DNA from: a virus
Reading direction: 5' to 3' (one strand)
IMG/VR virus record: IMGVR_UViG_3300037743_000223
Coordinates: 1-64,000 of that record
Length of the DNA stretch: 64,000 bases
The notes beneath the pieces were generated by a model. The model was not told where the DNA came from and did no database searches. It saw nothing but the letters and a program-made list of their open reading frames with translations. The translations under genes and the position numbers were made by a program. This document shows, piece by piece, positions 1,645 to 24,701 of this stretch (position 1 is its first letter; each line of letters begins with the position of its first letter).

Positions 1645-1943
1645 CCCGCTCGGTCACGGCCGCGGAGGCGGAGTGGGACGACCTGCAACGCGGGTGGATG
1701 CTCGCCCTCGGCCTGTGGCGGGACTCCCGCTGCCGCGGCTGCGGCGGTGATCTGGCCGAGACCACCGCGGAGGAGCACTCCGGCGACCCGGGCCGGGCCG
1801 GCTATCGGCCGCTGCTGCCGGTGCGCTGCCACCGGTGCACCGCCCTGTCCGCCTCCGAGCACACCTACCGGGACGAGCGGCATCCGCATGCGCTGATCCA
1901 CCGGGTGGAGCTGCGACCCGACCGGCGTAAACCACCCAGCTGA
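1503..1943 (+). CDS. -1 frame extension of tail assembly chaperone (C-terminal part of a GT-like fusion)
   Basis: ORF 1470-1943 is in the -1 frame relative to 925-1644; high GC3 and protein-like sequence (LTGRLDDEGTRRRVEAAERLGISLRRFDGWEP...) start at about 1503; ends 20 nt before tape measure. Confidence 0.55.
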   Translation, partial: FLTGRLDDEGTRRRVEAAERLGISLRRFDGWEPTTVTSHEHDEHGRLTRSVTAAEAEWDDLQRGWMLALGLWRDSRCRGCGGDLAETTAEEHSGDPGRAGYRPLLPVRCHRCTALSASEHTYRDERHPHALIHRVELRPDRRKPPS

Positions 1944-1964
1944 CCACCGGGGCGGGGGTGTGGG

Positions 1965-5683: not shown

Positions 5684-5685
5684 CG

Positions 5686-6261: not shown

Positions 6262-6283
6262 GCCCGGAGGAGGTGTCGAGCCC

Positions 6284-10145: not shown

Positions 10146-10201
10146 CATCCTCTCCGACTCCTGTCCGGACCATTCGGCTGACCCTTGAAAGGGGGTTGAC
10201 C

Positions 10202-11161: not shown

Positions 11162-11164
11162 CCG

Positions 11165-11386
11165 GTGTCGACTGCCGAGCTGGTGCCGCTGCTCGCCGAG
11201 GGAGGCATCCTCGGTGCGGTCATCTGGGCCATGATCGTGCTGCACCGGTCGGCCATAACCGCTCACAAACAGCGCGCCGACGAGTGGCAGGCGGCCTACC
11301 AGGCTGAGCGGGCGCTGTCCGCCGAACAGGCCCGGCAGCTGGCGCATGTGCTCGGCGGGATGCGGGACCCGGCGGAGGCGGCATGA
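11165..11386 (+). CDS. small membrane protein of lysis cassette (1 TM)
   Basis: GTG 11165 three nt after endolysin stop; hydrophobic segment GGILGAVIWAMIVL. Confidence 0.5.
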   Translation: MSTAELVPLLAEGGILGAVIWAMIVLHRSAITAHKQRADEWQAAYQAERALSAEQARQLAHVLGGMRDPAEAA

Positions 11387-11556
11387 GACTGTGGAGGCGG
11401 CGGGCGCAGGGCGGGGAGCAGCAGCAGGCGAGGCATGCCCGGCGGGATGCTGAGCGGCGGCTGCGGGAGACCCGCCGGCAGTGGCCACAGGTGAACCAGG
11501 CCCGGGACCAGTTGGCGGCGATCGTGGAGCAGGCGCTCCGCGGCGGGCGGTCCTGA
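11383..11556 (+). CDS. small Arg-rich protein (57 aa), lysis cassette
   Basis: Not in ORF track (under 60 aa); ATGA overlaps at both ends (11383 and 11556); high GC3. Confidence 0.4.
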   Translation: MRLWRRRAQGGEQQQARHARRDAERRLRETRRQWPQVNQARDQLAAIVEQALRGGRS

Positions 11557-11867
11557 TGCCGCCGGCATTTCAGGTGGTCCTGGCCGCCGAGCTGCTGGTG
11601 GCGTTGGTCGCCGCCGGCGTGTTCATGGCGCTGCACGGCCGCGGGTCGTGGTGGCGGCTGCCCGACGGCCGGCCGGACCGGGCGGGCCGGCAGCTCATGT
11701 GGGCGGCCGGGGTGGTCGCGGCCGAGACGCTGGTGCTGCTGCTGGTGCTGCTGGGGCTGCGCCCGCCATGGCCGGCGCTGGTCGGCGTCTACGCCGCGAT
11801 GGACTTGGTGATGATCCGGTGGGTGATCCTGCGGTGGATCACCCGGAGCCGAAGGAGCAGATCGTGA
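11556..11867 (+). CDS. holin-like membrane protein (about 3 TM)
   Basis: ATG 11556 overlaps previous stop; three hydrophobic helices then an Arg-rich tail. Confidence 0.5.
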   Translation: MPPAFQVVLAAELLVALVAAGVFMALHGRGSWWRLPDGRPDRAGRQLMWAAGVVAAETLVLLLVLLGLRPPWPALVGVYAAMDLVMIRWVILRWITRSRRSRS

Positions 11868-11869
11868 TC

Positions 11870-12121
11870 ATGACACCGGTACGTGAGCAGGTGAAGGCGA
11901 TCGCGGCCGGTGCGGGTGCCGGGCTCGCATCGGTGGCCACGGCGCTGGTCGACGGGCAGATCACCCCGCTGGAGTGGGTGATCGCCGCCGGGCTGGCGGT
12001 GGCCGCCTACCAGGCGGTGTTCTGGACACCCCAGCCGGCGCCACTACCGACGCTCACCGCGACCGAGCTCCGGGGCATGGCGGACCGGGCGGCCAGGCAG
12101 GAACGGGAAGCGCCACGGTGA
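11870..12121 (+). CDS. holin-like membrane protein (2 TM)
   Basis: ATG 11870 after GAAGGAG 11851-11857; Ala/Gly-rich hydrophobic segments. Confidence 0.5.
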   Translation: MTPVREQVKAIAAGAGAGLASVATALVDGQITPLEWVIAAGLAVAAYQAVFWTPQPAPLPTLTATELRGMADRAARQEREAPR

Positions 12122-12387
12122 GCCCCGCCACGTACCGGAAGCGGCCGGTGGAGATCCAGGCCGTCCAGTGGACCGGCAGCAACCTGGACGAAATCGCGGC
12201 CCTGGCCGGGGATGAGTGGATCAAGAGCGTGGCGCCCAACCCACCAGGCGATGACCTGATCGTGGACACCCTGGAGGGCGAGATGCGCTGCCGCCCCGGC
12301 TGGTGGCTGATCCGCGGTCTGCGTGGCGAGTTCTACCCGTGCGAGCCGGAGATCTTCGCCGCCTCGTACGAGTTGGTGGCGCGGTGA
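12118..12387 (+). CDS. hypothetical phage protein
   Basis: GTGA overlap at 12118; soluble 89 aa protein (YRKRPVEIQAVQWTG...). Confidence 0.55.
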   Translation: MSPATYRKRPVEIQAVQWTGSNLDEIAALAGDEWIKSVAPNPPGDDLIVDTLEGEMRCRPGWWLIRGLRGEFYPCEPEIFAASYELVAR

Positions 12388-12617
12388 GCCCGGCGACCCG
12401 CTGGCGGATCGCGTTTCTGGGCCTGACCGGGCTGGTGATCGGAATGGAGTTGTTCGCCGCCTGTGACGGCAGCGCCGACACCGAACCGTGGACCACGCTG
12501 ATCGTGCGGCACGTCCCCGGTGAGGTGACCGCCGCGCTGATCGGCGCGCTCAGCCTGTGGCTGGTGGTCCACTTCGCGCTGGCGTACCGGCGCAAGCGCC
12601 GGCGGGCCGCGAGATAA
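12384..12617 (+). CDS. small membrane protein (2 TM)
   Basis: GTGA overlap at 12384; two hydrophobic helices, basic C-terminus. Confidence 0.5.
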   Translation: MSPATRWRIAFLGLTGLVIGMELFAACDGSADTEPWTTLIVRHVPGEVTAALIGALSLWLVVHFALAYRRKRRRAAR

Positions 12618-12642
12618 TGGGACCTGAGCAAAGGAGAACGCA

Positions 12643-12858
12643 ATGCGTAAGTTGATCATCGTGTTGGCGCTGGTCGTCGCCGGCGTCGGTGCCGCGGCCA
12701 GCCCGGCGCACGCCGACCCGATCACCTGCCCGCCCGGCCAGGAGGCCACGGCCAATCCCAGCGAGGGCGGCTGGATGTGCGTCAACGCCGGGGGCCACGG
12801 CAACGAGTCCGAGGACCCGAAGAACCCGAACAAGGGCAAGGGCGACTTCCGCCCCTGA
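12643..12858 (+). CDS. small secreted protein (signal peptide, 71 aa)
   Basis: RBS AAGGAGA 12631-12637; N-terminal MRKLIIVLALVVAGVGAAASPAHA signal-like sequence. Confidence 0.6.
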   Translation: MRKLIIVLALVVAGVGAAASPAHADPITCPPGQEATANPSEGGWMCVNAGGHGNESEDPKNPNKGKGDFRP

Positions 12859-12916: not shown

Positions 12917-13357
12917 TCAGCCGGCCGCGTCGCGGCACTGGGCAGCGTTGTCCCGGTAGTCAGATGAGCCGATCTGCTCGGTCAGCCCTTCCACGTCCGC
13001 AGTGATCGCGTTCAGCTTGTCGGTCAGGTCCTCGACCGCTGCAGCGTCGTAGGCCATCCCAGCCTCGATCCCGTCGTAGATCATCATGGGCATTTCGGCG
13101 GCGATGTCGGCGAAGTCGGCGCTGAACCCCATCAGGTCCTCGGCGTCGTTCAGGGCCTTGAGGCAGACGTCCGGGATGTCGGCGACGGTGACCACGCTCG
13201 CCGGCGGGCTGGTGTCGGTGGTGGCCTCGGTGTCCTCACCGCTGGCGCCGAGGGCAATGCCGATGATCAGCGTGGCGACGGCGGTGACGATCCACGGCCA
13301 GCGGCGGCGGGGTTTCACGGGGGCGGTTGGGGTAGTGGGCTGCATGTCGATACTCAT
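12917..13357 (-). CDS. membrane-anchored hypothetical protein (moron-like)
   Basis: 146 aa, N-terminal TM (WPWIVTAVATLIIGIALGA) then acidic domain; first leftward gene after the lysis cassette. Confidence 0.55.
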   Translation of the reverse strand: MSIDMQPTTPTAPVKPRRRWPWIVTAVATLIIGIALGASGEDTEATTDTSPPASVVTVADIPDVCLKALNDAEDLMGFSADFADIAAEMPMMIYDGIEAGMAYDAAAVEDLTDKLNAITADVEGLTEQIGSSDYRDNAAQCRDAAG

Positions 13358-13439
13358 GGTCTACTGCTCTCTGGTCGGGTGGCGGGTCCTGTCCGCCACT
13401 CGGCCCCCGCCCGCCGGAGCGGGTGAGGGCCGGGCAGCG

Positions 13440-13733
13440 TCAGGCGTCTAGAAGCCGGTCGATCTCGGCCAGCCGCGCGACCAGCTGAGCCCGCTCAGCG
13501 CGCAGGCTGTCCAGGTCCGGGGCGTCAGCCTCGGTGACCGTCGCTCCGGCAGACCGGGCGAAGTCCACGGCGCCGGACGCCTGGAAGTCTCCGTCGTCCA
13601 CTCGGACGGTCCACAGCCGGCTGCCGGGGTCGTAGGTGGCGATGTCGCCGTGCCGGGCGGCGAGCCGCCTCAGCTCGCCGACGATCTTGGTGAAGCGGCT
13701 GCTGCCGCTCGCGTCGATCTGGTAGGTCCTCAT
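13440..13733 (-). CDS. hypothetical protein (97 aa)
   Basis: ATG 13733 (MRTYQIDASG...); upstream part of ORF 13440-13979 looks non-coding; start codon lies inside a 22-bp inverted repeat. Confidence 0.55.
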   Translation of the reverse strand: MRTYQIDASGSSRFTKIVGELRRLAARHGDIATYDPGSRLWTVRVDDGDFQASGAVDFARSAGATVTEADAPDLDSLRAERAQLVARLAEIDRLLDA

Positions 13734-13847
13734 ACCAGTAGCGTAGCAGCGCACGATGCCAGGCACCAGGGATATCCGGGTGATGTACGTCACAGCGTGT
13801 GCTGTCGGGTGCAGCCTAGAATCCCGCGCTGCTACGCTACTGGTATG
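13731..13847. repeat. perfect 22-bp inverted repeat (13731-13752 / 13826-13847) containing both divergent start codons
   Basis: CATACCAGTAGCGTAGCAGCGC and its exact reverse complement; each arm reads TACGCT-N6-ATG towards its gene. Confidence 0.9.
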
Positions 13848-14108
13848 ACCCAGACGACCGAGCTGGTCGGCAACGCCGCCGCTGCCGCCCACATCGGTGT
13901 GGCGCCGTCCACCTGGCGCTCCTGGGTGCAACGCGGCTACGCCCCCGCCCCCATCCGCCGCCAGATCCGCGGCGGCCACGCCCTACCAGTGTGGGACCGG
14001 GCCGAGGTGGACCAGTGGCAGGCGTCCCGCCGCGGCCAGGGCTGGGCCCGCGGCACCACCCGACCTCGGTCTAGCGGTGTGCGCGAGGGCCGGGAAGGGA
14101 CGCCGTAG
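13845..14108 (+). CDS. excisionase/AlpA-type helix-turn-helix DNA-binding protein
   Basis: ATG 13845; AAHIGVAPSTWRSWVQRGYAP...VWDRAEVDQW resembles the Xis/MerR-type HTH_17 fold. Confidence 0.6.
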   Translation: MTQTTELVGNAAAAAHIGVAPSTWRSWVQRGYAPAPIRRQIRGGHALPVWDRAEVDQWQASRRGQGWARGTTRPRSSGVREGREGTP

Positions 14109-14281
14109 CACCCCTGATCGCAGCTACCGGTAAGGCCGCAACGGAGCCCGGCCCCCGCACCCGGACACCGTAACTCGACCGGCCGACGGCCACCAGCCCG
14201 CCGGCTGTCCGGAACCCGACAGACAGGGGGGGCGGTCCGTCTCCCCCCTCGCGGAGACGGACCGCCCACGGATGGCCCGGG

Positions 14282-15226
14282 TCAGGTGGTGAAGCGCACC
14301 CGGCGGCGCCTGGCAGCCAGGTAGAGCCCGCCGCCGACGACGGCAGCCAGGCTGCCCCCGGTCAGCAGCAGCGGCAGCGCGGCACCGGTGACCGGCAGCC
14401 CCCCGGCCTCCCCGTCGTTCGAGCCGTCGTCATCCCCGCCGGGTGCGGCGGCGATGACGCACAGCGGCAGGAACCCGTCCCCGCCGGCCACCAGCTCGGC
14501 CAGCCGTACCCCACCGGCGGCCAGCCCGTTCACCCGGCCCAGATCATCGACAGAGCTGAACGGGCGCAGGGCGATGATCTGGGCGGCCCGGTCCGGGCCG
14601 ACATGCCGCAGCATCTGCAGTGTCTCCGCGTCTGCGGCGTTCACGTCCACGCACTCCGGCGGCTCCGGGTCGGCCGGGGCGGCCAGGGTGCAGGTCGCGG
14701 CGGCGTCGCCGAGCGCGGCCAGCTCCGCCTCGTCGACCGTCAGCGACCACTCTGTCTTGACCTGGACATAGACGGTCACGTAGCCGCAGGCTGCCGGCCC
14801 GTGTGGCGGTAGCCACTCGGCAGCGTCGTCGTCGCCCTTGCTGGCGTTCAGGTTGTCGGTCATCAGCCACAGATTCGCGGCAGTCGAGCCGAACTCGTCC
14901 CGCTGCGCCGCGGTCCAGCCGTCGGCGCCGGAGTCCCACGCCTCCGCGAGGGCGACGATGTGGTCCACATCCACCTCGCCCGCATCGGCGTAGCACTGGT
15001 CGTCGGCGGCCGAGTAGAAGCCGCACGCCTGCTCCCCGGCGGCCAGCACGGCGTCCCGGTCCGGGTCGCCGAACAGGTCCCGGTCGTACCCGGCGCGGTC
15101 CGCCTCGGCGGCCACGGTAAGGCTGGCGATGTCGCCGGCCAGGTCGGCCTGCGCCGGCCCGGCGAGTGTGAGCGTTCCGCCGGCCACGCCGAACGCGACC
15201 GCCACCGCCCATGTCCTGATCTTCAC
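14282..15226 (-). CDS. secreted, LPXTG-anchored HNH (DUF1524-like) nuclease with ComEA-type helix-hairpin-helix domain
   Basis: GTG 15226; signal peptide; VDVDHIVALAEAWDSGA...NLNASKGDDDAAEWLPP; VDVNAADAETLQMLRHVGPDRAAQIIALRP; C-terminal LPVTG plus TM plus RRRR. Confidence 0.7.
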   Translation of the reverse strand: MKIRTWAVAVAFGVAGGTLTLAGPAQADLAGDIASLTVAAEADRAGYDRDLFGDPDRDAVLAAGEQACGFYSAADDQCYADAGEVDVDHIVALAEAWDSGADGWTAAQRDEFGSTAANLWLMTDNLNASKGDDDAAEWLPPHGPAACGYVTVYVQVKTEWSLTVDEAELAALGDAAATCTLAAPADPEPPECVDVNAADAETLQMLRHVGPDRAAQIIALRPFSSVDDLGRVNGLAAGGVRLAELVAGGDGFLPLCVIAAAPGGDDDGSNDGEAGGLPVTGAALPLLLTGGSLAAVVGGGLYLAARRRRVRFTT

Positions 15227-15459
15227 TCCTGCGCTCCTGTCTCGGCCGCCGCGGCGGCCGGATGTAGTCCACGTCGGTCCGACCCGTCGTCGTAGACCGT
15301 CCACGGCGTCGGCTCCGGCTCCCCGGGTCGGACCGGCCGGCCCATCGCAGCCAGCGCCAGCTCGATGTCCCGGTAGGTGTCGGTGTGCGCCACCCGGCCG
15401 TGGGGCGTGATGTAGCTGATCTGCCAGTGATCTGGTCTGCGCTGCCCGTCCGGGTCCAC
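15223..15459 (-). CDS. hypothetical protein (78 aa) coupled to the nuclease gene
   Basis: GTG 15459 with GGAGGAG 6 nt upstream; GTGA overlap with nuclease start. Confidence 0.5.
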   Translation of the reverse strand: MDPDGQRRPDHWQISYITPHGRVAHTDTYRDIELALAAMGRPVRPGEPEPTPWTVYDDGSDRRGLHPAAAAAETGAQE

Positions 15460-15518
15460 CGGCGCTCCTCCAGCTGCTGTCGGAAGATCGAAGCCCTTCC
15501 GCTGGCTCCGCTGAATGT

Positions 15519-15556
15519 GTCCGGCCCCGGTCAGCCCGAGCTGTCCGGGGCCGGAC
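15519..15556. repeat. 12-bp perfect hairpin/palindrome in divergent intergenic region
   Basis: GTCCGGCCCCGG (15519-15530) pairs with CCGGGGCCGGAC (15545-15556), 14-nt loop. Confidence 0.6.
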
Positions 15557-15685
15557 GGTGGATGGTGCTCCCGACCTCACGCCGGCCGGAACATGGTGGG
15601 TGCGGACCCGGCCCGGTCGGCTCCCGCAGGCCCCGTTCCCCTCGGATTTGAGGGTGCCGGGCCGAGTCCGCTGGCCACCTGCCCA

Positions 15686-15801
15686 GTAGCCAAACCGGGA
15701 GGCGACTCGGCAAGAGTAGAGTCACTAAGTGCGCTGAGTCAACTGGGCGCTTGCACCACGGGAGGGGGTGTCACCAGGATGGGCGGTAGCCAAACCGGGA
15801 G
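15686..15801 (+). repeat. 16-bp direct repeat GTAGCCAAACCGGGAG, two copies exactly 100 bp apart
   Basis: Copies at 15686-15701 and 15786-15801, flanking the 5' end of the GntR-type gene. Confidence 0.85.
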
Positions 15802-16033
15802 TGACACCTTGACGCGCCGTATGACCGGCCGCCAGATCGCGGATGACCTGGATGCCCGTATCCGTTCGGGCGAGTACCGGGTCGGCGAACAGCTGCTGTT
15901 CGCCGACCTGACGACGCTGTACCAGACCAGCCGGGCGACTATCCAGCGGGCCATGTCCCTGCTGGAGGACCGCGGTCTGGTCGAGTACCAGCCCGGCCGG
16001 GGCCGTTACGTCCGGGAGGACCACCCGGTCTGA
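15779..16033 (+). CDS. GntR-family winged-HTH regulator (HTH domain only; KorA/TraR-like by context)
   Basis: RQIADDLDARIRSGEY..GEQLL..DLTTLYQTSRATIQRAMSLLEDRGLVEYQPGRGRYV matches the GntR wHTH pattern; start 15779 (or 15821) uncertain. Confidence 0.7.
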   Translation: MGGSQTGSDTLTRRMTGRQIADDLDARIRSGEYRVGEQLLFADLTTLYQTSRATIQRAMSLLEDRGLVEYQPGRGRYVREDHPV

Positions 16034-16058
16034 CCCGCCGACCAGCGTGACCCCTGGC

Positions 16059-18092
16059 TCAGCTCGGCTGGTCCAGGGTCCAACTGGGGCCGGGCACGTA
16101 CGCGGTGCCCCGGCCGCCGGGCTGGGCGAGCACCCCGGCCTGCGCGTCGGCCCGCATCCACCCGATGACCGTCTGCTCGACGGTGCGGTAGTCCTCGGCC
16201 TGCATCTGCTGCCACACCGCCCGGGGGCCGATGCCGTCGCGCCGATGCTCCTGGACGATCTGCCGCATCCGTGCCCGCGGCGGCAGCCGCAGGTCGGTCG
16301 GGGCACCCGACAGCCAGCCCTCCACCACCGTCCAGTCGGTGGCCGGGTCGGCGTCGGCTTCTTCCCGGGCCTGCCGGGCGGCGTCCACCGCGTCGCGTAG
16401 CCGCTTCGCGGACTCGTCCAGGTTCACGGTCTCCTCCGGTCGGGTCAGGGTGGCGGTCACGGTGCCGCCTCCCGCAGCCTGCTCCCGGTCGGGTCGCGCC
16501 CGGCCGGCCGCGGGGAACATCAGCGGCAGGGTCTGCTCCCACCGCCCGGGGTAGGCGGCGCCGGCCAGCTCAACCGAGATCGGGTCCAGACCGGGCCGCA
16601 GGTCGCCGAGCACGATCGACGCGGCCTCGATCCGCGCCGGCTTCAACCGGCGGACCTTGAACGGGGCCGCCGGACTGGCCCCGGTGGAGAGCGCCCCGGA
16701 GCCACGGTAGGGCATCGAGGCAGGGTCGAACCGGCCCCTCGACCACATCGCATCGAACAGGTACTGCAGCTCCGCCTCATCGGAGACCCTCATGGCGATC
16801 CGCTCCCGGGCCTGCACGATCATCGCCCGGGAGATGTCCGCCCCGATCGCACGCAGCACGCTGGACACGACCCGCACGCCGGCGCCGCGGCCGGTGTTAG
16901 AGATCGTCTCCAGCGTCTCCTTCACATCGGCCGGCAGGTCCGCGAACTCATCCACCAGGATCACGATCTCGGGGACCTCGGGTGAGACCGGAAGCTTGTC
17001 GTCATCGGCCTGGTGCATCATCTGCTCGTAGGCGGCCGTGCGGCCGTTGATGATGGACACCGCCGCCGCGGTGAGTCTCCGGGCCTCCTCCGGAGTGACC
17101 GCCGCCCAGTCGATCACCGGAGCGGTCGCCCGGCCCTCCCGCCACGCCCGCACCCACGGCCGGGGGAACCGGCCGTTGCCCGAGCAGTCGACAGCCCAGA
17201 TCAGCGCGTCGGTGCACCGGCCCAGCTGGTGGGTGATCACGTTCAGGGTGTTGGACTTGCCGGAGTCGGTCTGCCCGACCAGCACGCAGCAGGCGAACCG
17301 TAAGGTGATCGCGGCCGGGCTACGGTCGGCGTAGTCACCCAGCGGCAGCGGGTTCTCGATCGACAGCGGTGACGTGGCATCGTCGAGGTGTCGGGTCTCG
17401 GCGATCGCGTTCACCGTCGCGACCCGGACCGTGAAGAAACGCCGGCCCCTGTCGGTGCCCAGCACCTCCACGTTGCAGCCCGGTGGCAGATTCGCGGCGG
17501 ACGCGAGCTGCGCCTCGTACGCCTTCACGTCGGCCACGGTGGTGCCGTCGCCGGGCAGGGTGCAATGCAGGGTGAACCCGGTCGGCGGGTCCCACCTCTC
17601 TGCCTGGTCGACGACGATCTGCCGGCGGGTGATCTGCCGCAGTCGCTCCTCCCACCGGGCAGCTACCGGGTCCCGGTCGCGCTCTGGCGCTGGCCTGTCC
17701 ACGTCGGGCTGCTGCCGGTCTTCCAGCCAGGCCAGCCCGGACCCGATGACCGCGGCCAGGGCGACACCGGTGGCGAGCAGGATCAGCGGCCACCGCGACC
17801 ACGGGGAGCTGTGGGTGAGCGTCCAGGACGACCAGCCGCCGGCGGCCACCCAGCAGCCGGCCCGGTACGCCACCGCCTGCCCGGGCGCGGACCGCCAGGC
17901 GGCGGTGACCGCGGCCGCGCAGCCCAGCACCGCCCCGGCCACCAGCGGCCACCCGGCCGGCAGCAGCCCGGACGCGGCCCCGACCGAGGTGACCGACAGG
18001 GCGGTCAGCCCGGCCATGGCCGCGCCGATCACCGGGTGCCGGCCCGGGCCGAACGACCAGTCCGACCAGTCCACCTCCAGCCGCTTGGTCAC
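16059..18092 (-). CDS. FtsK/SpoIIIE-family DNA translocase (TraB/Tra-like)
   Basis: GTG 18092 (GTGA overlap with upstream stop); N-terminal TM helices, Walker A VGQTDSGKSN, Walker B EIVILVDEF, C-terminal wHTH-like region. Confidence 0.8.
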   Translation of the reverse strand: MTKRLEVDWSDWSFGPGRHPVIGAAMAGLTALSVTSVGAASGLLPAGWPLVAGAVLGCAAAVTAAWRSAPGQAVAYRAGCWVAAGGWSSWTLTHSSPWSRWPLILLATGVALAAVIGSGLAWLEDRQQPDVDRPAPERDRDPVAARWEERLRQITRRQIVVDQAERWDPPTGFTLHCTLPGDGTTVADVKAYEAQLASAANLPPGCNVEVLGTDRGRRFFTVRVATVNAIAETRHLDDATSPLSIENPLPLGDYADRSPAAITLRFACCVLVGQTDSGKSNTLNVITHQLGRCTDALIWAVDCSGNGRFPRPWVRAWREGRATAPVIDWAAVTPEEARRLTAAAVSIINGRTAAYEQMMHQADDDKLPVSPEVPEIVILVDEFADLPADVKETLETISNTGRGAGVRVVSSVLRAIGADISRAMIVQARERIAMRVSDEAELQYLFDAMWSRGRFDPASMPYRGSGALSTGASPAAPFKVRRLKPARIEAASIVLGDLRPGLDPISVELAGAAYPGRWEQTLPLMFPAAGRARPDREQAAGGGTVTATLTRPEETVNLDESAKRLRDAVDAARQAREEADADPATDWTVVEGWLSGAPTDLRLPPRARMRQIVQEHRRDGIGPRAVWQQMQAEDYRTVEQTVIGWMRADAQAGVLAQPGGRGTAYVPGPSWTLDQPS

Positions 18093-19261
18093 GCCGCCGC
18101 CCGCTCCCGGTTGGCCCGGTGGTCCCACATCTCCTTGCGCTTGTCGGCCAGTGCCTCGATCTCCGGCCGGTGCAGCGCGTGCGCGGTCGGGGCGATCTCC
18201 TCCGCCGCGGCGGCGGTGAGCCGCTGGTGCCTGGACACCGCCTCCACCAGTTCCACGATCACGGGATGCAGCGGGTACCGCTCGGCCGCCTTGCGGTGCA
18301 GGATCACCCAGGCGTCTACCAGCCTGGCCAGCGCGTCCGGCCACTGCCGGTATGCCTCGATCACCTCCAGCATGCCCTCAGGCTCCCACCGGGTGACCAC
18401 GGCGACAATCTGGTCGGTCGCCTCCTGGATCTGCAACATCGGGGTCTGGGACATGGGTCCTCCTCGCGGGTGCGGACTCTCACGGGGGTCCGGTGGTGCC
18501 GGTGGTGCTGGTGGGGCCGGCGGGGGGGCGGGCCGTGGCGGGGGGCCGGTCGGCGGTACGGGTGGGGCCGGAGGCGGGGGTGGCGTTCCGGGGCCGGGCG
18601 GCCGGCTGGCTGCTGGGGGTGCAGGTCGGGCGTGCGGCCCCGGCCGCCGTTGCGGTGCCGGCTGCGGGCGGCCCGCGCCGTTGTCGACGGGACGGGCCGG
18701 GGGGGTGGGCCGGTACCAGCGCCACGCCGCCCGCAGCCCGCGCCGCGCGGCGGACAGCGTGACGGCTGTCCCGGCCCGTCGCCGACCGGTCGGCACCGGC
18801 TGCGGGCCGGCTGCGGGGGCCGGGCGTGCCCGGCCGGTGGCGTGGACGACCTGGCGGGTCCGACCCCGGGACGTGGGCAGCCCCAGCCACCCGGCCGCTG
18901 CCCGGGCGCCACGCCCCAGCGGACCTCGCCGCCCGGGCGCCCGCGGCGCCAGCCCTTCGGCGGCCAGCACCGCGGACCGGGCCCGCCGCTGCCGTAGCTG
19001 CGGGGGTCCGTCGAGGCGCACCCGCCGGCCGTTGATCGTCCGCCAGCGGCCGCCCGGACCCGGCCGCCGCTTGGCCATCGCCCCGGCGCCGGCAGCCGCG
19101 ACGGTGCCACCGGCGGCCACCGCCAGCCCGAACGCGCCGGCCAGGTGCGCCACCGTCGCCCCGGCGATCGCCGCCAGGTTGGCCACGGCGAGCACCACCG
19201 TCCCGGCCGGTAGCCGCCCCGGCCCGGCCTTCCGTACCGCGCTATCGCGAGGCTGTTCCAT
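18089..19261 (-). CDS. membrane plus Pro/Arg-rich protein; possibly two products (internal start 18454)
   Basis: ATG 19261; 2 TM then long Pro-rich linker; in-frame ATG 18454 has a strong RBS GAGGAGG and starts a 121-aa globular domain. Confidence 0.5.
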   Translation of the reverse strand: MEQPRDSAVRKAGPGRLPAGTVVLAVANLAAIAGATVAHLAGAFGLAVAAGGTVAAAGAGAMAKRRPGPGGRWRTINGRRVRLDGPPQLRQRRARSAVLAAEGLAPRAPGRRGPLGRGARAAAGWLGLPTSRGRTRQVVHATGRARPAPAAGPQPVPTGRRRAGTAVTLSAARRGLRAAWRWYRPTPPARPVDNGAGRPQPAPQRRPGPHARPAPPAASRPPGPGTPPPPPAPPVPPTGPPPRPAPPPAPPAPPAPPDPRESPHPRGGPMSQTPMLQIQEATDQIVAVVTRWEPEGMLEVIEAYRQWPDALARLVDAWVILHRKAAERYPLHPVIVELVEAVSRHQRLTAAAAEEIAPTAHALHRPEIEALADKRKEMWDHRANRERAAA

Positions 19262-19264
19262 CGG

Positions 19265-19540
19265 CTAACCCCCCCTCTGGTCCTGTGGCCTGCGGTTACG
19301 CCCCGGCCGGGGGCGGGTGGCGCCGGCAATATCGCGAGTCTCGCGAGACTCCGCCATGGCTGCGGTAGCCCCGACCACCCATAGCCCGGCCGCGGCGGCG
19401 AGCAGCCGCCAGAACCAGGTCAGCCCGGTCGGCAGGCTGATCACCGCTGCCACCACGCACCCGAGCGCGGCCAGCCACGCCACGTCCGCCGTGCCCAGCC
19501 GCCCCCGCCGTCCCTCCCGGCGGGGCGGTGGCGGGCTCAC
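19265..19540 (-). CDS. small membrane protein (2 TM, Spd-like by context)
   Basis: GTG 19540 in GTGA overlap with upstream stop; high GC3. Confidence 0.5.
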   Translation of the reverse strand: MSPPPPRREGRRGRLGTADVAWLAALGCVVAAVISLPTGLTWFWRLLAAAAGLWVVGATAAMAESRETRDIAGATRPRPGRNRRPQDQRGG

Positions 19541-19671
19541 GACAGCCTCCCCAGCAGGTGCCCGACCACACCGGCCACGGCGCAGGCCAGGCCGAACCAC
19601 TTGACCACCGTCCAGGTCCGCGGGCCCGCGGTAAGCCGTGCCCGCCGTGTCGCACGCGGTTGAGTGGTCAT
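19537..19671 (-). CDS. very small membrane protein (44 aa)
   Basis: Not in ORF track; ATG 19671 in ATGA overlap with DUF2637-like stop, stop overlaps next GTG; one TM (WFGLACAVAGVVGHLL). Confidence 0.45.
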   Translation of the reverse strand: MTTQPRATRRARLTAGPRTWTVVKWFGLACAVAGVVGHLLGRLS

Positions 19672-20684
19672 GCCGCCTCACGCTCCCCGTCATCGTCGCC
19701 CCGGTCTGCCTCGCCGTTGCGCCAGCCGGACAGCCGTTTCACCGCCGCGATCGCCCGAGCCCGGGAGCACGACCCATGGACCCGGCGGAGAGCGGACAGG
19801 GCGGTCGGCGAGCCAGGCACCCTGTCCGAGAACTCCCGGTCGAGAGTCCGGGCAAGCTGGTCGACGGACACCTCACCGGCCCGGCTGCGGCGAGGCCGAT
19901 CAGCTGTCCGGCCGGTGATGCTCCGGACAGAAGCCAGGGGGGAGGCTGGCTCCTGTCCGGAGCGGGTATCCGGCTTCCCGGCTGCCGGGGTGGCCGTCCG
20001 CCGCGCTGGCCTGTCCGGCCGGCGAGCGGCTGGGGGTGTCCGGCGGGCGGTCCGCCACTGCGCGTACCGGGCGCGGGCCTCGTCCACCGTGGCCACCGGC
20101 TCCCACGAGATCAGGTAGACGGTGATCAGCGACCGGATAGGGTGTAGCAGCTTCGCCGAAGTGGGTAGCCGGGGCAGCGCCGGGTCGATCTGACCTGCGG
20201 CGATCATCTCCCGCCGCTGCGCCCAGCGGGAACCGCGGGACCACAGCCACAGCGACGAGGCGGACATGCCGGCCAGGACCCAGGCCACCAGCTCCGGCAG
20301 GCCCCGGTATCCCAGCCACCAGTGGATGGCGATGGCGGATATCCCGACGTAGACGAGCATGCCGACCCGCAGCTGCCAGACGCTGTCCCGGGCGCGTAGG
20401 TGCTGGTCGTACAGCCACATCAGGTATCCGGCGGCGGCCTCGATTGAGGTTGCCACGGCCAGCCCGAGTAGCCCGGCCAGGCCGTACCACAGCCACGCCG
20501 GCCCGGTGCCGGCCTGCCTGTCCGCGAGCTGCCCGCCGACCAGGTCGGTGACCGCGGTGGCCTGGAGCACGAATGCGACGGCCAGGGCGGCGGTTGGTGG
20601 GGTGTAACGCAGCCACCGAACCCCTGTCCGGGTATCCGACTGGGGGTGTCCGGTGGGGGTGTCCGCGGCCGGGGAGTCAGTCAC
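19668..20684 (-). CDS. DUF2637-like polytopic membrane protein with basic C-terminal domain
   Basis: GTG 20684; 4-5 TM N-terminal half then Arg/Pro-rich tail; architecture and neighbourhood typical of DUF2637 proteins next to FtsK-like genes in actinomycete ICEs. Confidence 0.55.
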   Translation of the reverse strand: MTDSPAADTPTGHPQSDTRTGVRWLRYTPPTAALAVAFVLQATAVTDLVGGQLADRQAGTGPAWLWYGLAGLLGLAVATSIEAAAGYLMWLYDQHLRARDSVWQLRVGMLVYVGISAIAIHWWLGYRGLPELVAWVLAGMSASSLWLWSRGSRWAQRREMIAAGQIDPALPRLPTSAKLLHPIRSLITVYLISWEPVATVDEARARYAQWRTARRTPPAARRPDRPARRTATPAAGKPDTRSGQEPASPLASVRSITGRTADRPRRSRAGEVSVDQLARTLDREFSDRVPGSPTALSALRRVHGSCSRARAIAAVKRLSGWRNGEADRGDDDGEREAA

Positions 20685-20747
20685 GATGATCAGTGTGACA
20701 TGACCGAGACGGACGGGGCAACCGAGACGAGTGAGTGAGCCGAGACG
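20680..20747. promoter_or_regulatory. operator-like motifs in divergent control region
   Basis: Palindrome GTCAC-GA-TGATCA-GT-GTGAC (20680-20699) over the DUF2637-like start; three CCGAGACG repeats at 20704, 20722, 20740 (18-bp period). Confidence 0.5.
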
Positions 20748-20835
20748 ACTAGATCAACCTGTGCTGTCCGGGTGGTTCAAGACGCGCGTTACGGCCGGTA
20801 CGATCAGCGCAACCCGAGCGACAGGAGCAGGCACG

Positions 20836-21102
20836 ATGCCCGAGCCCGACCGAGCCGGCCTTGAACGGCGGCTCGACGCCGGGAAGTGGCTGCGCCTGAG
20901 TGAGGTCGCCCACCTGCTGGACGCCAGCCGGGCAAGCGTCGACCGGTGGGTCCGGGACGGCCGGTTCCGTTACCGCCGCCGCGGGCCGCGGGGGGACCGG
21001 TTCCTGCATCCCGAGGATGTGCGGCGGGAGCTGGACGAGTACCGGCGGGAGCGCCGCAACGGTGTCGCCGAGCCCGGAGACGGCTCCGCCCCGCCCGGGT
21101 AG
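20836..21102 (+). CDS. excisionase-family helix-turn-helix protein
   Basis: ATG 20836 after AGGAG 20823-20827; WLRLSEVAHLLDASRASVDRWVRDGRF...HPEDVRREL. Confidence 0.65.
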   Translation: MPEPDRAGLERRLDAGKWLRLSEVAHLLDASRASVDRWVRDGRFRYRRRGPRGDRFLHPEDVRRELDEYRRERRNGVAEPGDGSAPPG

Positions 21103-21200
21103 CGGGCAGGGCGGGTCAGGCTCCGGCGCTGGCGGTGGGGGTCAGCGATCCGCCGGGCCGGGACCGGCGGGGCAGGCCCCGGCGGCTGAGCTGGGCGCCG

Positions 21201-21728
21201 TCAGACCGGCTGCCGGATCGCCGGGTCAGGCTCCGGGTCGACGATGCGATCGCCCCCACCACCGCCGCGACACCACGGACACCACGGCCGCAGCCGCTGG
21301 TGGACGGTCACCGCCTGCGCCACCACCGCCAGCGGCATCAACGCGACCGCGACCGCCGGCCACGACGCCGCCCAGTCCAACCCCGCCAGCGCCAGTGCCA
21401 GCAGCACCAGGAACGGCCCAACCGTAAGCGCCGCCACCCGCCAGATGCTCGGCACCACCAGGTGATGCAGCCACAGCATCCGACGGCGTCGGCTGGCGAC
21501 CCCGGCCACGTCCAATGGCATCGCCTCCGCGCACCAGGTGCACGGAACCCGACCCCGCTGCACCGCCAGCAGCACGTACCCGGCCAGCGCGGTGACCCAG
21601 GCGGCGGTAGCCGCAGGGGAGTCGGCCGCCTCCGTGACCGCCGCCGTGCCGACCAGCACGAGCGCCACGACCGGCGCGGGTGGCCGGCATGCCAGCAGGT
21701 GCCCCAGCCGGCCAGGGTCGCCGGTCAT
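21201..21728 (-). CDS. polytopic membrane protein with two CxxC motifs
   Basis: 175 aa, 4-5 TM; CTWC and CPWC motifs; ATGA-type coupling with upstream gene. Confidence 0.55.
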   Translation of the reverse strand: MTGDPGRLGHLLACRPPAPVVALVLVGTAAVTEAADSPAATAAWVTALAGYVLLAVQRGRVPCTWCAEAMPLDVAGVASRRRRMLWLHHLVVPSIWRVAALTVGPFLVLLALALAGLDWAASWPAVAVALMPLAVVAQAVTVHQRLRPWCPWCRGGGGGDRIVDPEPDPAIRQPV

Positions 21729-22102
21729 CAGCGCTCACCCAGCCGCTTGAGCAGCGTCATCCGGTCGATCCCGCACCGCCGGGCCGTCTCCCGCTTGATC
21801 CGCTGGCCGGGATGGTCACGTACGACCATCGCGGCGACCTGCTGGGCGGCGGCGAACGCCCTGGCCGCGGCCAGGCGGGCGGCACCCAGCTCCGCCGCCA
21901 CCTGCTCCGGGGTGATGTCGCCGAGCATGTGCTGGACGGCAGCGGACAGGGCCGCTTCGCGCAGGTCAGCATCGTCCAGGTCCGGCCAGTAGGCGGCGAT
22001 GTCGTCGGACTCCCGGACCAGCCGGTCAACCTGCTCAGCGGTGAGGTCGCCGGCGGCCGGCCCGAGCCAGGCCATCATCTCGTGCTGCTGGGTGGCGGTC
22101 AT
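21728..22102 (-). CDS. hypothetical protein with C-terminal HTH
   Basis: 124 aa; C-terminus IKRETARRCGIDRMTLLKRLGE is resolvase/Hin-type HTH-like. Confidence 0.55.
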   Translation of the reverse strand: MTATQQHEMMAWLGPAAGDLTAEQVDRLVRESDDIAAYWPDLDDADLREAALSAAVQHMLGDITPEQVAAELGAARLAAARAFAAAQQVAAMVVRDHPGQRIKRETARRCGIDRMTLLKRLGER

Positions 22103-22108
22103 CAGTGG

Positions 22109-22471
22109 TCACACCTCCGTGGCCGAGTCGTAGGCGGCGCCGATCATGTCCCACATCTCGATGTCGTCGTCAAGGCTGGTGACGCTGACAATCCGGGTCG
22201 GCCGGAGCAGGATCTCGCCGTACTCCGCGTCGAGCGGGGTGTCGTCGGACTCGGCGCCCTCCAGCCCGACCAGCACCCAGCCGCCGGAGCCGTAGGGGAT
22301 GCCCTCGCCGACGGTGGCCAGGTAGCCGGCCAGCACCTCGCGGGACTCGCAGACGGAGATGCCGGAACGGTTGAGGTCGTCGCGGTGCCAGGCGCTGGAG
22401 ATCTGCGCCTCGGAGTCGAGCAGCGTCTCGACGGGCCGGTTGCCTGGCTGGACTCGGTAGTACGTCCTCAT
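22109..22471 (-). CDS. hypothetical protein (120 aa)
   Basis: ATG 22471 preceded by TAGACT plus 7 nt (possible leaderless start); high GC3. Confidence 0.55.
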   Translation of the reverse strand: MRTYYRVQPGNRPVETLLDSEAQISSAWHRDDLNRSGISVCESREVLAGYLATVGEGIPYGSGGWVLVGLEGAESDDTPLDAEYGEILLRPTRIVSVTSLDDDIEMWDMIGAAYDSATEV

Positions 22472-22548
22472 GTGGACGAGTCTACACCGTGGTTGTAGCC
22501 CCGTCTACATGAGGCATCACCCGAACGGGTGAATCCACCCCACCGGTA

Positions 22549-22588
22549 CGGCCCCGGACCCTGGGACGTCGCCCAGGGTCCGGGGCCG
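22549..22588 (-). terminator. 17-bp perfect GC-rich hairpin after the RHH gene
   Basis: CGGCCCCGGACCCTGGG / CCCAGGGTCCGGGGCCG with 6-nt loop; no U-tract (common in actinomycetes). Confidence 0.6.
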
Positions 22589-22603
22589 CTCGTGTCGACG
22601 GGA

Positions 22604-22726
22604 TCAGCCCTTCCGCAAGCCGGCTGCCACCAGATCACGGATGGTCGCGGCCCGGCTGGTGCCATCAGCAGCCGCCCGGGCGTCCACCAGAGCCAGCAGC
22701 TCGGCGGGGAACTCGAAGATGCCCAC
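22604..22726 (-). CDS. ribbon-helix-helix (CopG/Arc-like) protein, 40 aa
   Basis: Not in ORF track; GTG 22726; VGIFEFPAELLALVDARAAADGTSRAATIRDLVAAGL matches beta-strand plus two-helix RHH pattern. Confidence 0.5.
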   Translation of the reverse strand: MGIFEFPAELLALVDARAAADGTSRAATIRDLVAAGLRKG

Positions 22727-22755
22727 CGTCGGCCCCCGTATACGGCGGGCGCACC

Positions 22756-23019
22756 TCAGCCCTCCGCCGCCTCCACGTCGGGCAGCATGAACTCCACCCG
22801 GTTCAGCGCCGCCCAGGCGGCGGCGCGCTGGTACGCCTCGGCCGCCTCCGTCACGAGCTGCCGCAGATGGCGCAGCGGCACCTTGCCGTCGGCCAGCGCC
22901 AGCTGCGCCTGGGCCAGCTGGTGGCCCGCCTCCTTGACGGCCCGGATGCAGTTGTCCCGCTCGCTGCGGACCTCCTGCTCGAAGCCGCGGCGGATCAGCT
23001 CCGGTGGGTGCTTCGCCAC
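22756..23019 (-). CDS. hypothetical protein (87 aa)
   Basis: GTG 23019 with GAGGAGGG upstream; rest of ORF 22756-23307 is off-target extension. Confidence 0.55.
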   Translation of the reverse strand: MAKHPPELIRRGFEQEVRSERDNCIRAVKEAGHQLAQAQLALADGKVPLRHLRQLVTEAAEAYQRAAAWAALNRVEFMLPDVEAAEG

Positions 23020-23024
23020 GGGGC

Positions 23025-23420
23025 TCAACCCTCCTCGGTCCGGCCCAGCGCCTCCCGGGCGCGACGGATCGCCTCGGTCATAATCTGCCGGTCCGGCAAC
23101 CGAGCCGCGCTGGTGTCGTCGAGGACCACCAGCCACTCGGCCAGCGCCCGCAGCCGGTCCGGCTCGGTGGCAGTCCGGAGCATCGCTGCCTCGTCCGCCG
23201 CGTGGATCTGGTCCCGCCGGTCCAGCTCGGCCAGCAGCGCCCACACCACGGCGGTCACCTCCAGTGAGCCCGACTTGCCGTAGGCGAAGGCCACCGACCG
23301 CGCCCACTCGTCCAGCGGCCGAGGAAGCCTGACGCCGGTGTTGTCGATCGCCGCCAGCACCGTCGGCCGGTACTCCGGCTCCCGCATCGCGGCGGTGTAC
23401 GGGTCAACCCTCTGCGCCAT
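23025..23420 (-). CDS. hypothetical protein (131 aa)
   Basis: ATG 23420 (MAQRVDPY...); helical protein; 2 nt after upstream stop. Confidence 0.55.
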   Translation of the reverse strand: MAQRVDPYTAAMREPEYRPTVLAAIDNTGVRLPRPLDEWARSVAFAYGKSGSLEVTAVVWALLAELDRRDQIHAADEAAMLRTATEPDRLRALAEWLVVLDDTSAARLPDRQIMTEAIRRAREALGRTEEG

Positions 23421-23422
23421 GG

Positions 23423-23758
23423 TCAGCGCCTCCCCTTCCTCCCTCTCGTTCCAGCGGTCCAGCGGTCCAGCACCTGCCGGCCCGCTGCGGTCATCTGCCA
23501 GTACGACGGCTCCCGGTCGACGGGCGGGCGGATCCAGCCACGCTCGGCGAGCAGGTCCCACCACGGGGTACGACGGCGTGGGAAGCCGGCCGCTGGCGGA
23601 CGGTCGGCCATAGTCCACTCCAGCATCGGCGTGGCCAGCGGCTCGCCGCTCCGCGCGTCGTACCGGCGCACCGAGCAGCGTAGGGTGATGTGCCCGCACT
23701 CGATGTCCCGTAGAGTCCGCAGAATCGCGGCCTCACGCAACTCGCTGCACCGCCCCAT
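23423..23758 (-). CDS. hypothetical protein (111 aa), possibly winged-helix
   Basis: ORF track; part of the tightly packed leftward operon. Confidence 0.5.
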   Translation of the reverse strand: MGRCSELREAAILRTLRDIECGHITLRCSVRRYDARSGEPLATPMLEWTMADRPPAAGFPRRRTPWWDLLAERGWIRPPVDREPSYWQMTAAGRQVLDRWTAGTRGRKGRR

Positions 23759-23761
23759 CGC

Positions 23762-23986
23762 TCAGCCCTCCACCAGCTCGACAGCGTCATCGCCGTCGAG
23801 CACGTCCCACTCGCCCTCGTCGACATACCAGGGGTTGCCCCAGCCGCTGCACTGAGCGCAGATCCTGCCGGGCATGGCATCGCTGTCGAATGCCGCATCC
23901 TTGGCGGCTTCCTCGTTGTCAGCGGTTACCTCGACGCTTGTGCTCAGAACCATCTGCAAGTTGACGCGGTACCTCGGCATGGTCAT
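23762..23986 (-). CDS. hypothetical acidic protein (74 aa)
   Basis: ATG 23986 after GAGAGG; overlaps upstream stop. Confidence 0.5.
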   Translation of the reverse strand: MTMPRYRVNLQMVLSTSVEVTADNEEAAKDAAFDSDAMPGRICAQCSGWGNPWYVDEGEWDVLDGDDAVELVEG

Positions 23987-24378
23987 GTCCTCTCGTTGAT
24001 CTGGTCCCGGTCTGGGGTGGCAGCTAGCAGCCGCGCTTCCGCGTCGGCGTAGTCCCCGACGTGCTCGCCCAGCGGCTGGTCCTGCCGTGGCCCGGTGATC
24101 TGCCACCGCATCGCCGGCCGCAGCCCGCCCGCCTCGATGCCCACCGCGCGGATCGCACCGCGCAGCACCGGCCCCCGCTGCGGGTGGCTGGACCACACCA
24201 CCAGCTCCCCGTCGAGCAGCTGGCAGGTGACCTCGCCGCGGACCCGCCGCAGCCAGCACGCCCCGCACACCAGCTTGTCGGTGTCGCCCCACTCGTCGGG
24301 CAGCGGCCACGGGCGCAGCGGGCCGTCGCCCAGGCAGGATAGGCACCAGTCCGGCGCCTCCAGCATCGTCGCATCCAC
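23983..24378 (-). CDS. hypothetical protein with N-terminal CxxC...CxxC zinc-ribbon-like motif
   Basis: GTG 24378 with GGAAGGAG upstream; CLSC...CGAC. Confidence 0.55.
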   Translation of the reverse strand: MDATMLEAPDWCLSCLGDGPLRPWPLPDEWGDTDKLVCGACWLRRVRGEVTCQLLDGELVVWSSHPQRGPVLRGAIRAVGIEAGGLRPAMRWQITGPRQDQPLGEHVGDYADAEARLLAATPDRDQINERT

Positions 24379-24425
24379 GGTGGGTTATCTCCTTCCTTGG
24401 TTGGCCGGTCCGGGGACAGCCCGGG

Positions 24426-24599
24426 TCAGTCCCGCAGCTCCCACTGGGCGACGTGGGCGCCGGTGCACTCCTGAAGCATGGTCCGGACGTAGGTCCGAAT
24501 GTCTTCGCGGATCTCCTCCCGGTCGCAGCCGTATTCGAGGAGCCACGCCTCCACGCCCTCGGCCGGAATGTCTAACGTGGCATTGATGCGTACCTTCAT
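24426..24599 (-). CDS. hypothetical protein (57 aa), first gene of leftward operon
   Basis: ATG 24599 with AAGGGGGA RBS; in-frame upstream extension to 24719/25037 looks non-coding or low-complexity. Confidence 0.5.
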   Translation of the reverse strand: MKVRINATLDIPAEGVEAWLLEYGCDREEIREDIRTYVRTMLQECTGAHVAQWELRD

Positions 24600-24701
24600 G
24601 TCGTTCCCCCTTGTCGTTGCTGGGTTGGTGCTCCCGGCCCCCGCGAGGCGGGGCTCTACGAGGGCCGGGGCGTCGGTGGGGGTGCGGGGCTGGTCGTTGC
24701 C

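Follow-up and report, generated by a model that had tools for sequence, protein, structure and literature searches.

The stretch of DNA analysed here, called the window, comprises positions 1 to 64,000 of the IMG/VR virus record IMGVR_UViG_3300037743_000223 and carries a leftward operon of five genes that specify a membrane-anchored FtsK-like DNA translocase, a partner protein and three further membrane proteins (Table 1). With 72% G+C over its 64 kb the window reads as part of a large siphovirus-type tailed-phage or prophage genome; the phage is temperate and its host a filamentous actinomycete. The five frames, 20684 to 16059, are supported by G+C at third codon positions (GC3) and by reading of the open reading frames (ORFs) and their junctions, at which starts and stops overlap or abut. 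On these grounds much of what an initial annotation had proposed from the letters alone holds: the coupled operon, its two tiny transmembrane (TM) proteins, its bracketing by a short convergent GntR-type regulator and a divergent excisionase-type helix-turn-helix (HTH) protein, and its placement between phage lysis genes and integrase, with the endolysin to the left and the serine integrase to the right. The source gene call for the membrane protein at the head of the operon is shorter (300 aa, start at 20570), and the 44-aa and 91-aa proteins have no family match in Pfam, NCBIfam and PHROG scans. A scan of the module for consensus promoters and terminators found none, as expected for a high-GC actinomycete.

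Table 1. Genes and repeats of the translocase module, followed by other landmarks of the window (TM, transmembrane; wHTH, winged HTH).
Feature	Position	Strand	Remarks
Polytopic membrane protein, operon head	19668-20684	-	338 aa; at least 3 TM segments (TM scan)
Tiny membrane protein	19537-19671	-	44 aa, 1 TM; ATG overlaps upstream stop (ATGA)
Small membrane protein	19265-19540	-	91 aa, 2 TM; GTGA overlap with upstream stop; GGGGAGG ribosome-binding site
Partner protein	18089-19261	-	390 aa; start 3 nt past upstream stop
TraB-type FtsK-like translocase	16059-18092	-	677 aa; GTGA overlap with partner gene; GC3 0.93
GntR-family wHTH-only protein	15779-16033	+	84 aa; convergent with translocase gene; Pfam GntR 1.7e-14
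HTH_17 (excisionase/MerR-type) protein	20836-21102	+	88 aa; divergent from operon; Pfam HTH_17 2.2e-6
Two perfect 16-nt direct repeats, GTAGCCAAACCGGGAG	15686-15701, 15786-15801	+	Flank lower-GC putative promoter and GntR start
Three 15-nt copies of CGGGTCAGGCTCCGG	21112-21236		Spaced 54-56 nt; convergent gap between HTH_17 gene and gene 21201-21728
Rightward tail genes	1-12858	+	Include tape measure (1965-4811) and phosphodiesterase/tail protein (6964-9351)
Endolysin	10196-11161	+	Within rightward tail/lysis stretch
Leftward gene block	12917-24719	-	Holds the transfer-like module
Early genes	Right of leftward block	+	Include helicase and methyltransferase
Serine integrase	29141-30595	+	Right of module
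DnaB	61523-62866	+	Early region

An AlphaFold2 model of the translocase, built from 49 sequences and with a mean predicted local distance difference test score (pLDDT) of 86, places four TM helices at the N-terminus of the protein (residues 20-127); an FtsK motor of alpha/beta plus RecA type (142-525) comes next, then a disordered linker, and the C-terminus is a domain of three helices and a putative wing (605-667). The hydropathy scan finds three TM helices and the model four (20-41, 48-66, 71-94 and 100-127; pLDDT about 90). Both motifs named in the initial annotation, Walker A GQTDSGKS and Walker B ILVDEF, are present, and none of their residues G273, G278, K279, D381 and E382 varies among 49 relatives. 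When the motor was compared with the PDB by Foldseek, FtsK of E. coli and P. aeruginosa came first (2ius, 6t8b; E 1e-17, TM-score 0.62-0.66, about 400 aligned columns), followed by the conjugative coupling protein TcpA and then by EccC/EssC and HerA, and a sequence-only search of the PDB again placed FtsK on top. Among the PHROGs the protein matches phrog_31069 ('FtsK/SpoIIIE-like protein') at 2.7e-80, and as its Pfam score is below threshold, it is this match together with the structure that identifies it as an FtsK-type ATPase. A reading as packaging ATPase was considered and rejected, since related phages have separate terminases and the ATPase of the window is membrane-anchored.

In tblastn searches the closest relatives of the ATPase outside its own prophage clade are plasmid proteins of Streptomyces, Kitasatospora, Nocardiopsis, Frankia, Actinomadura and Thermobifida, which are up to 40% identical to it. 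Matches of 29-33% identity come from the Hiyaavirus phages Galactica, Hiyaa, Spocter and Keanu, from Thermobifida phage P1312 and from the plasmid-phage ZL12, and a weaker one from Saccharomonospora phage PIS 136 (24.5% over 47% of the query). A look-up of the exact ATPase sequence gave no record. A search of IMG/VR with the single protein returned no relatives and an alignment of 30 sequences held no block conserved enough; the related loci were located with a closer alignment of 18 ATPase sequences. In a neighbour-joining tree phage and plasmid ATPases are interleaved within the family, and repeated exchange between the two kinds of element is therefore indicated.

The gene directly upstream of the ATPase had been described as encoding a TM plus proline-rich protein, which captures its anatomy and misses its conserved C-terminal domain. 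The product, which we call the partner, begins with a TM anchor, continues with a low-complexity linker rich in Arg and Pro and ends in an all-helical domain of about 110 residues (coded by about 18092-18430). The source gene calls, like those of several relatives, annotate just the last 116-180 codons (116 in the window). However, in the window and in L012, a sister phage on a 93.7-kb IMG/VR contig, a single open frame connects the conserved TM anchor with the conserved C-terminal domain through a linker that has diverged and differs in length, and since the single frame is kept in both, the long ORF is probably real and the gene probably yields a single product of 390 residues. The Pro-rich part of the linker (18442-18660) has a GC3 of about 0.64 as compared to about 0.9 in the neighbouring genes, a signal that could reflect codon-repeat low complexity.

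Pfam, NCBIfam and the PHROGs contain no family for the partner, its C-terminal domain included, and the helical bundle predicted for this domain (pLDDT 83) gave no significant fold match in the PDB, the best being an EsxA-like helical hairpin at E 2.4. In about 30 loci, essentially all those collected, a hidden Markov model (HMM) of the domain, which scores the window protein at 7.8e-60, finds it at the C-terminal end of the ORF that immediately precedes the ATPase gene. The loci lie in phages (Galactica gp98, P1312 ORF64 and five IMG/VR contigs), on plasmids (pDSM40587, pSQ10, pAGRA3207_2, pADI95-16c and a S. longwoodensis plasmid) and in chromosomes of Micromonospora, Nocardiopsis, Actinomadura and Umezawaea, while after one iteration the HMM had no match on pIJ101 and pJV1. 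Searched for among 1.84 billion library representatives, the domain was found in 290 representative clusters, in proteins of about 110-825 aa, and it is C-terminal in nearly all of the 150 matches listed. An uncharacterised domain family can now be recognised. Judged by these sequence comparisons the helical domain is the signature of a cassette of partner and ATPase, and this domain, for which Pfam has no model, is likely a core part of a second actinomycete DNA-transfer system.

The initial annotation had set the module apart as not belonging to siphoviruses. For this lineage the statement is contradicted by at least five related prophages in which the module occupies the same place (L012, L018, L007, L037 and L038) and by its own PHROG family. 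The ATPases of these prophages are 45-66% identical to that of the window, with motifs intact, and the order is tail, endolysin, variable genes, ATPase, partner, membrane protein(s) and a divergent HTH_17 gene; Nudix genes lie near the cassette in L037 and in L038, the latter a Salinispora prophage. The lineage of prophages that bears the cassette belongs to the Micromonosporaceae and, as far as sequence and gene order tell, the cassette is an integral and conserved part of this siphovirus lineage and no foreign insert. The same comparison bears on the thought that the cassette is a passenger, i.e., a captured fragment of a plasmid or of an actinomycete integrative and conjugative element (AICE) that has no function for the phage. 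The window holds neither an AICE-type replication initiator nor a Nudix gene, its GntR gene is reduced to the wHTH and the flanking genes are variable, as would be expected of a remnant. Yet none of the five ORFs is interrupted and their translation is coupled, no catalytic residue varies, the position has been held across prophages diverged to 45% identity, and substitutions in the C-terminal domain of the partner are biased to third positions, and we therefore consider a functionless remnant very improbable.

Partner and ATPase also occur on small plasmids, where they include the only FtsK-like ATPase found, as judged by annotation tables and by Pfam scans of the larger neighbouring proteins; this holds for pSQ10 (18 kb), pAGRA3207_2 (16 kb) and pADI95-16c (10.5 kb). 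The first two carry in addition a divergent full-length GntR gene, small membrane genes and a Nudix hydrolase, a layout that is standard in actinomycete conjugative plasmids and AICEs (PMC3218068, PMC4447253), and Nocardiopsis chromosomes contain pSQ10-like islands with the order GntR, small genes, partner, ATPase and Nudix. The 29-kb Streptomyces plasmid pDSM40587 has a PF01580-positive TraB-like gene beside a DUF2637 gene (960-5236) and, separately, a partner and ATPase cassette (7144-11981). As this plasmid carries both, a TraB-like system and the partner cassette can coexist, which suggests that the two are not simply interchangeable and have different roles.

With AICEs the window shares the logic of the gene set, an FtsK-like pump together with membrane 'spread' proteins and an HTH regulator. 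An AICE combines, in one compact element, an integrase and Tra with an AICE-type Rep (RepSA, RepAM or Prim-Pol) and commonly with Nudix (Pif) and GntR, whereas the window is without AICE-type Rep, Nudix and full-length GntR, and its integrase, 8 kb from the module, resides in a tailed-phage genome of about 94 kb that has tail and lysis genes and its own DnaB, helicase and methylase genes. Profile scans detected no Rep-type or Nudix match in the module and a scan for the Nudix box found none in any frame of the window, bearing out the earlier statement that the module lacks a replication initiator and a Nudix gene and is not a complete AICE.

An element that is plasmid and phage at once is pZL12/phiZL12, reportedly described by Zhong et al. 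in 2010 as a 90-kb Streptomyces plasmid that also makes infectious siphovirus particles. In its record (GQ919031) pZL12.71c is the only FtsK-like gene found, and tblastn with the ATPase of the window hit no second place on pZL12. The product of 71c belongs to the same ATPase family (28.6% identity over 518 aa, E 4e-38); its gene follows 72c, in which two copies of the partner domain are detected after one HMM iteration (E 7.5e-26), and 73c, a membrane protein gene. Thus, as in the window, the partner domain is encoded directly upstream and a membrane protein further upstream, and the module adjoins phage structural genes, the element being one that forms virions. Yet the identity is low, and pZL12 is an extrachromosomal plasmid-prophage with ParAB, a full-length divergent GntR gene and the two partner-domain copies, unlike the phage of the window, in which a serine integrase is present and no par genes are seen. 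Transfer of pZL12 has been shown experimentally and a conjugal transfer locus has been mapped, as told in PMC3583192. Because 71c is the only FtsK-like gene found on pZL12, we infer that traA-traC of this locus correspond to 71c-73c. If so, ATPase and partner of the window would have their homologues in a transfer locus that has been tested and that belongs to an element able to form phage. A phage/ICE chimera, the possibility raised initially, would not be without precedent, as pZL12 exists.

The phage genes of PHROG 31069 (Hiyaavirus gp99/gp102, P1312 ORF63 and PIS 136) encode members of the same protein family, with 29.9-32.7% identity over about 540 aa for the ATPases of Galactica and P1312, and have the same partner gene upstream. 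P1312, which by its tail protein is the nearest isolate (34% identity), encodes a serine integrase as does the window, and the tail proteins of the two are related. The Hiyaaviruses, in contrast, have no annotated integrase or repressor and their cassette is rightward among early genes: in Galactica (81 kb) the block runs membrane protein, small gene, partner and ATPase. The full annotation of Galactica contains no integrase, repressor or partition genes and includes a DNA polymerase, a primase and RecA, and the Hiyaaviruses are probably lytic. The initial annotation had named a block common and syntenic in strictly lytic relatives as an argument against a transfer role, and the finding of the cassette in Hiyaaviruses goes part of that way. 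Since phages without annotated integrase carry it, conjugation from a lysogen is not the general role of the cassette; carriage by probably lytic phages favours movement of phage DNA during infection, e.g., across hyphal cross-walls.

Based on these data we propose, at what we take to be even odds, that the operon contains a plasmid- or AICE-derived cassette for translocation of double-stranded DNA that became fixed in a temperate siphovirus lineage and is used to move DNA independently of virions. On the observed gene anatomy, fold, family relationships and synteny we would build the following mechanism, in which hexamer formation, selection of DNA, interaction with the partner and the biological role are what we infer. 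The 677-aa protein would form a membrane-embedded, FtsK-like hexameric pump, whose C-terminal winged-helix domain would select phage DNA at a putative cis site. The partner, by its TM anchor, Pro/Arg-rich spacer and helical domain, might together with the small and polytopic membrane proteins constitute the part that crosses envelope or septum, analogous to Spd proteins. Without any virion, the complex could then carry circular or replicating phage dsDNA through the cross-walls of a hypha or into another hypha. In a lysogen the excised prophage would be transferred in a manner resembling conjugation, as for pZL12, and during infection the outcome would be intramycelial spread. A related idea, that SpdB2 homologues on actinophages might help phage DNA to spread, was put forward by Thoma et al. 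2015 (PMC4447253).

The model for such a pump is the Streptomyces TraB protein, which consists of a TM domain, an FtsK-like translocase and a C-terminal wHTH (Vogelmann 2011, as rendered in PMC3583192). TraB/Tra of pSVH1, pIJ101 and pJV1 share this three-part architecture, as to the wHTH by prediction, with the ATPase of the window, are of like length (about 650-770 aa) and are likewise accompanied by translationally coupled small membrane (Spd-like) genes. They differ in that classical TraB works without a partner domain, with which the ATPase of the window is paired, and in that TraB systems use clt, of which none was identified in the window. Several observations weigh against our proposal, and the first concerns relatedness. 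Against TraB proteins the ATPase reaches 28.5 bits (pIJ101 Tra), 39-48 bits (pJV1 TraB) and 43 bits (the TraB-like protein of pDSM40587), a remote similarity as compared to 141-296 bits within its own clade in the all-against-all comparison, although this clustering is limited by the mutual similarity of pIJ101 Tra and pJV1 TraB, itself merely 19.6 bits. The neighbour-joining tree separates this family from the three TraBs, a split recovered in 65 of 100 bootstraps. Of the TraB-type reading the domain architecture is thus retained and membership in the clade of pIJ101 Tra and pJV1 TraB is not, and by sequence the ATPase is best placed in a TraB-like clade distinct from classical TraB. A further point is the score against Pfam FtsK_SpoIIIE (PF01580), 15 bits with a cut-off of 24; as the characterised TraB of pJV1 scores 18 bits (pIJ101 Tra, 39 bits), this is no argument against a TraB architecture. 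The winged helix, moreover, is predicted from topology: the C-terminal domain has helices at 605-615, 623-632 and 639-651 and a short strand at 665-667 that is a possible wing (pLDDT above 90), and it gave no Pfam HTH match and no alignment to the FtsK gamma domain of some relatives.

To these we add that the link to a tested locus passes through our assignment of traA-traC on pZL12, that the Hiyaaviruses carry the cassette without an annotated integrase, and that FtsK-like genes are routinely annotated in actinophages and we know of none for which a function has been shown. Nor did we find, near or inside the module, a cluster of short repeats resembling clt, the cis-acting TraB-recognition-type direct repeats of about 8 bp near tra for which a search had been suggested: exact 8-mers nowhere form a cluster of four or more copies near the module, the densest cluster of degenerate 8-mers is the Pro-codon low-complexity stretch of the partner gene described above, and both flanks yielded merely two-copy or three-copy repeats.

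The head of the operon is the last point on this side. The initial annotation called the 338-aa protein DUF2637-like, which it is not detectably: it has no match to Pfam DUF2637 (PF10935) at E up to 5, an hhalign comparison with three DUF2637 proteins is not significant (E 0.14), and scans of Pfam, NCBIfam and the PHROGs place it in no family. It belongs to a family of 21 proteins without Pfam matches and shows a weak match to Galactica gp96, annotated as membrane protein (E 8e-4). The counterparts at the operon head in L012 (2.4e-8) and L038 (6.8e-8) are Pfam DUF2637 proteins, and on sequence grounds we regard the window protein as a positional analogue of them, and of the DUF2637 proteins on plasmids, by non-homologous replacement at this slot.

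Since the motor is structurally closest to chromosomal FtsK, it could alternatively act in segregation or host takeover, as an FtsK/SffA-like pump at sporulation or vegetative septa that holds phage or prophage DNA, or replicating concatemers, on the correct side of a closing septum or brings them into spores, with no export to other cells. Some members of the family have a genuine FtsK gamma domain (4.4e-19), such a role is compatible with lytic and temperate carriers alike, and the literature leans that way in informal terms: the authors of P1312 proposed merely 'DNA segregation' for its FtsK-like gene (PMC4569894) and phage papers tie such genes to Streptomyces development (PMC13587820). 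However, the gamma domain is absent from the ATPase of the window, and segregation leaves unexplained the obligatory partner with its long Pro-rich spacer of predicted extracytoplasmic type, the DUF2637 and Nudix neighbours, and the same pair with the only FtsK-like ATPase found on plasmids of 10-18 kb. We therefore judge this explanation unlikely.

The module is part of the leftward block that separates the lysis genes from the integrase, a place in which temperate actinophages frequently have accessory genes expressed in lysogeny. This location brings up exclusion or defence, in which a prophage membrane ATPase would block or expel incoming DNA, of superinfecting phages or of conjugative plasmids taking the same route, or be part of a defence system. 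The ATPase has a partial match to mad8 in PADLOC (1.6e-10, residues 326-460), the divergent HTH_17 regulator has a weak match to a MADS1-type HTH in NCBIfam (E 0.037), and a gene for a cell-wall-anchored nuclease is nearby (14282-15226). The mad8 match, though, spans just the P-loop core common to all FtsK/HerA ATPases, whereas MADS defence needs the multi-gene set mad1-8, and nine other proteins of module and neighbourhood had no MADS match in PADLOC, a scan that covered proteins other than the HTH_17 regulator. In addition, the full-length architecture and the partner recur on the small plasmids in which no other FtsK-like ATPase was found, apparently lytic phages carry the cassette too, and the nuclease has no counterpart in L012. 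A defensive role has, in our estimate, a low probability.

Returning to virion-independent DNA movement, its widest version would make a lineage of integrating siphoviruses of the Micromonosporaceae and their relatives hybrids of phage and conjugative element, the genome of which, once excised or while replicating, would be pumped as dsDNA by its own TraB-type cassette into adjacent hyphae or compartments. There would be two routes of dissemination, by virion and by mycelial contact, and the partner domain would be a new essential component of a second type of actinomycete DNA-transfer machine; this we put forward tentatively, as possible and more doubtful than the proposal itself. Carriage by Hiyaaviruses shifts the weight from a mating escape of the lysogen towards a role in infection and spread. 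What had been a vague FtsK-like annotation becomes a two-gene cassette common to small conjugative plasmids, AICE-like islands and, with the locus as assigned above, pZL12. It also gives rise to the testable hypothesis that phages of mycelial bacteria move DNA from cell to cell without particles which, if true, bears on the spread of infection through compartmentalised hyphae, on the dissemination of prophages and on the boundary between phages and conjugative elements.

The two regulators differ in their conservation. In the GntR protein the wHTH alone matches Pfam (residues 18-78 of 84), and among the loci it is most similar to the N-terminal parts of GntR regulators that plasmids encode in full length (37-41% identity). 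No homologue was found in L012, L007 and L018, and the gene is a variable accessory, not a conserved part of the module. KorA/TraR repressors, to which the initial annotation had likened it, are full-length GntR/HutC proteins with a wHTH and a C-terminal effector or oligomerisation domain, encoded divergently from tra/spd; because the window protein is truncated, convergent and absent from relatives, it is not their equivalent. The HTH_17 protein has homologues in L012 (712-978, 95% identity) and L018 (42%), and HTH_17/MerR genes are likewise divergent from the module in L007 and L038. Between window and L012 its 95% identity compares with 50% for the adjacent partner and 66% for the ATPase; on this comparison the regulator appears to be under unusually strong constraint.

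Repeats in the neighbourhood of both regulators are listed in Table 1. For the GTAGCCAAACCGGGAG pair none of 100 shuffles reached the observed number of near-matches, and the pair may be an operator of the short GntR gene, for which it is a candidate. The three copies of CGGGTCAGGCTCCGG do not exceed chance in shuffles.

At the DNA level the element appears to have no close relative among sequenced phages, as megablast of the 13-24 kb region against 50,697 phage records gave no match, and a search for tRNA genes, possible att markers, found none in the window. A protein identical to the ATPase of the window is recorded from a JGI contig of 94.9 kb. The leftward gene at 14282-15226 encodes a secreted nuclease candidate in which a signal peptide is combined with a GmrSD_C/HNH-type nuclease domain (4e-9), a DNA-binding helix-hairpin-helix of ComEA-like type (1e-8) and an LPXTG cell-wall anchor; the product would be a prophage-encoded surface-anchored nuclease adjoining a DNA-pump module, and its gene sits in a variable stretch that is not conserved. 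Just past the HTH_17 gene, the leftward gene at 21201-21728 specifies a protein of 175 aa with 4-5 TM helices and two CxxC pairs (CTWC, CPWC), which had no match in Pfam, PHROGs, NCBIfam and PADLOC. Just upstream of the serine integrase, the rightward gene at 26495-28156 encodes a 553-aa member of phrog_850 ('RNA-binding protein', 7e-47). The strongest cluster of short repeats in the window lies away from the module, at 60505-60816, in or at the ORF 60264-61526 directly upstream of the DnaB gene. It is a tandem array of 33-nt (2.8 copies) and 21-nt (3 copies) units (GAAAGGCCGGACGGTGGTCCG) in which a partly palindromic core, CGGACGGTGGTCCG, recurs five to six times, and this iteron-like array is a candidate replication origin or protein-binding array.

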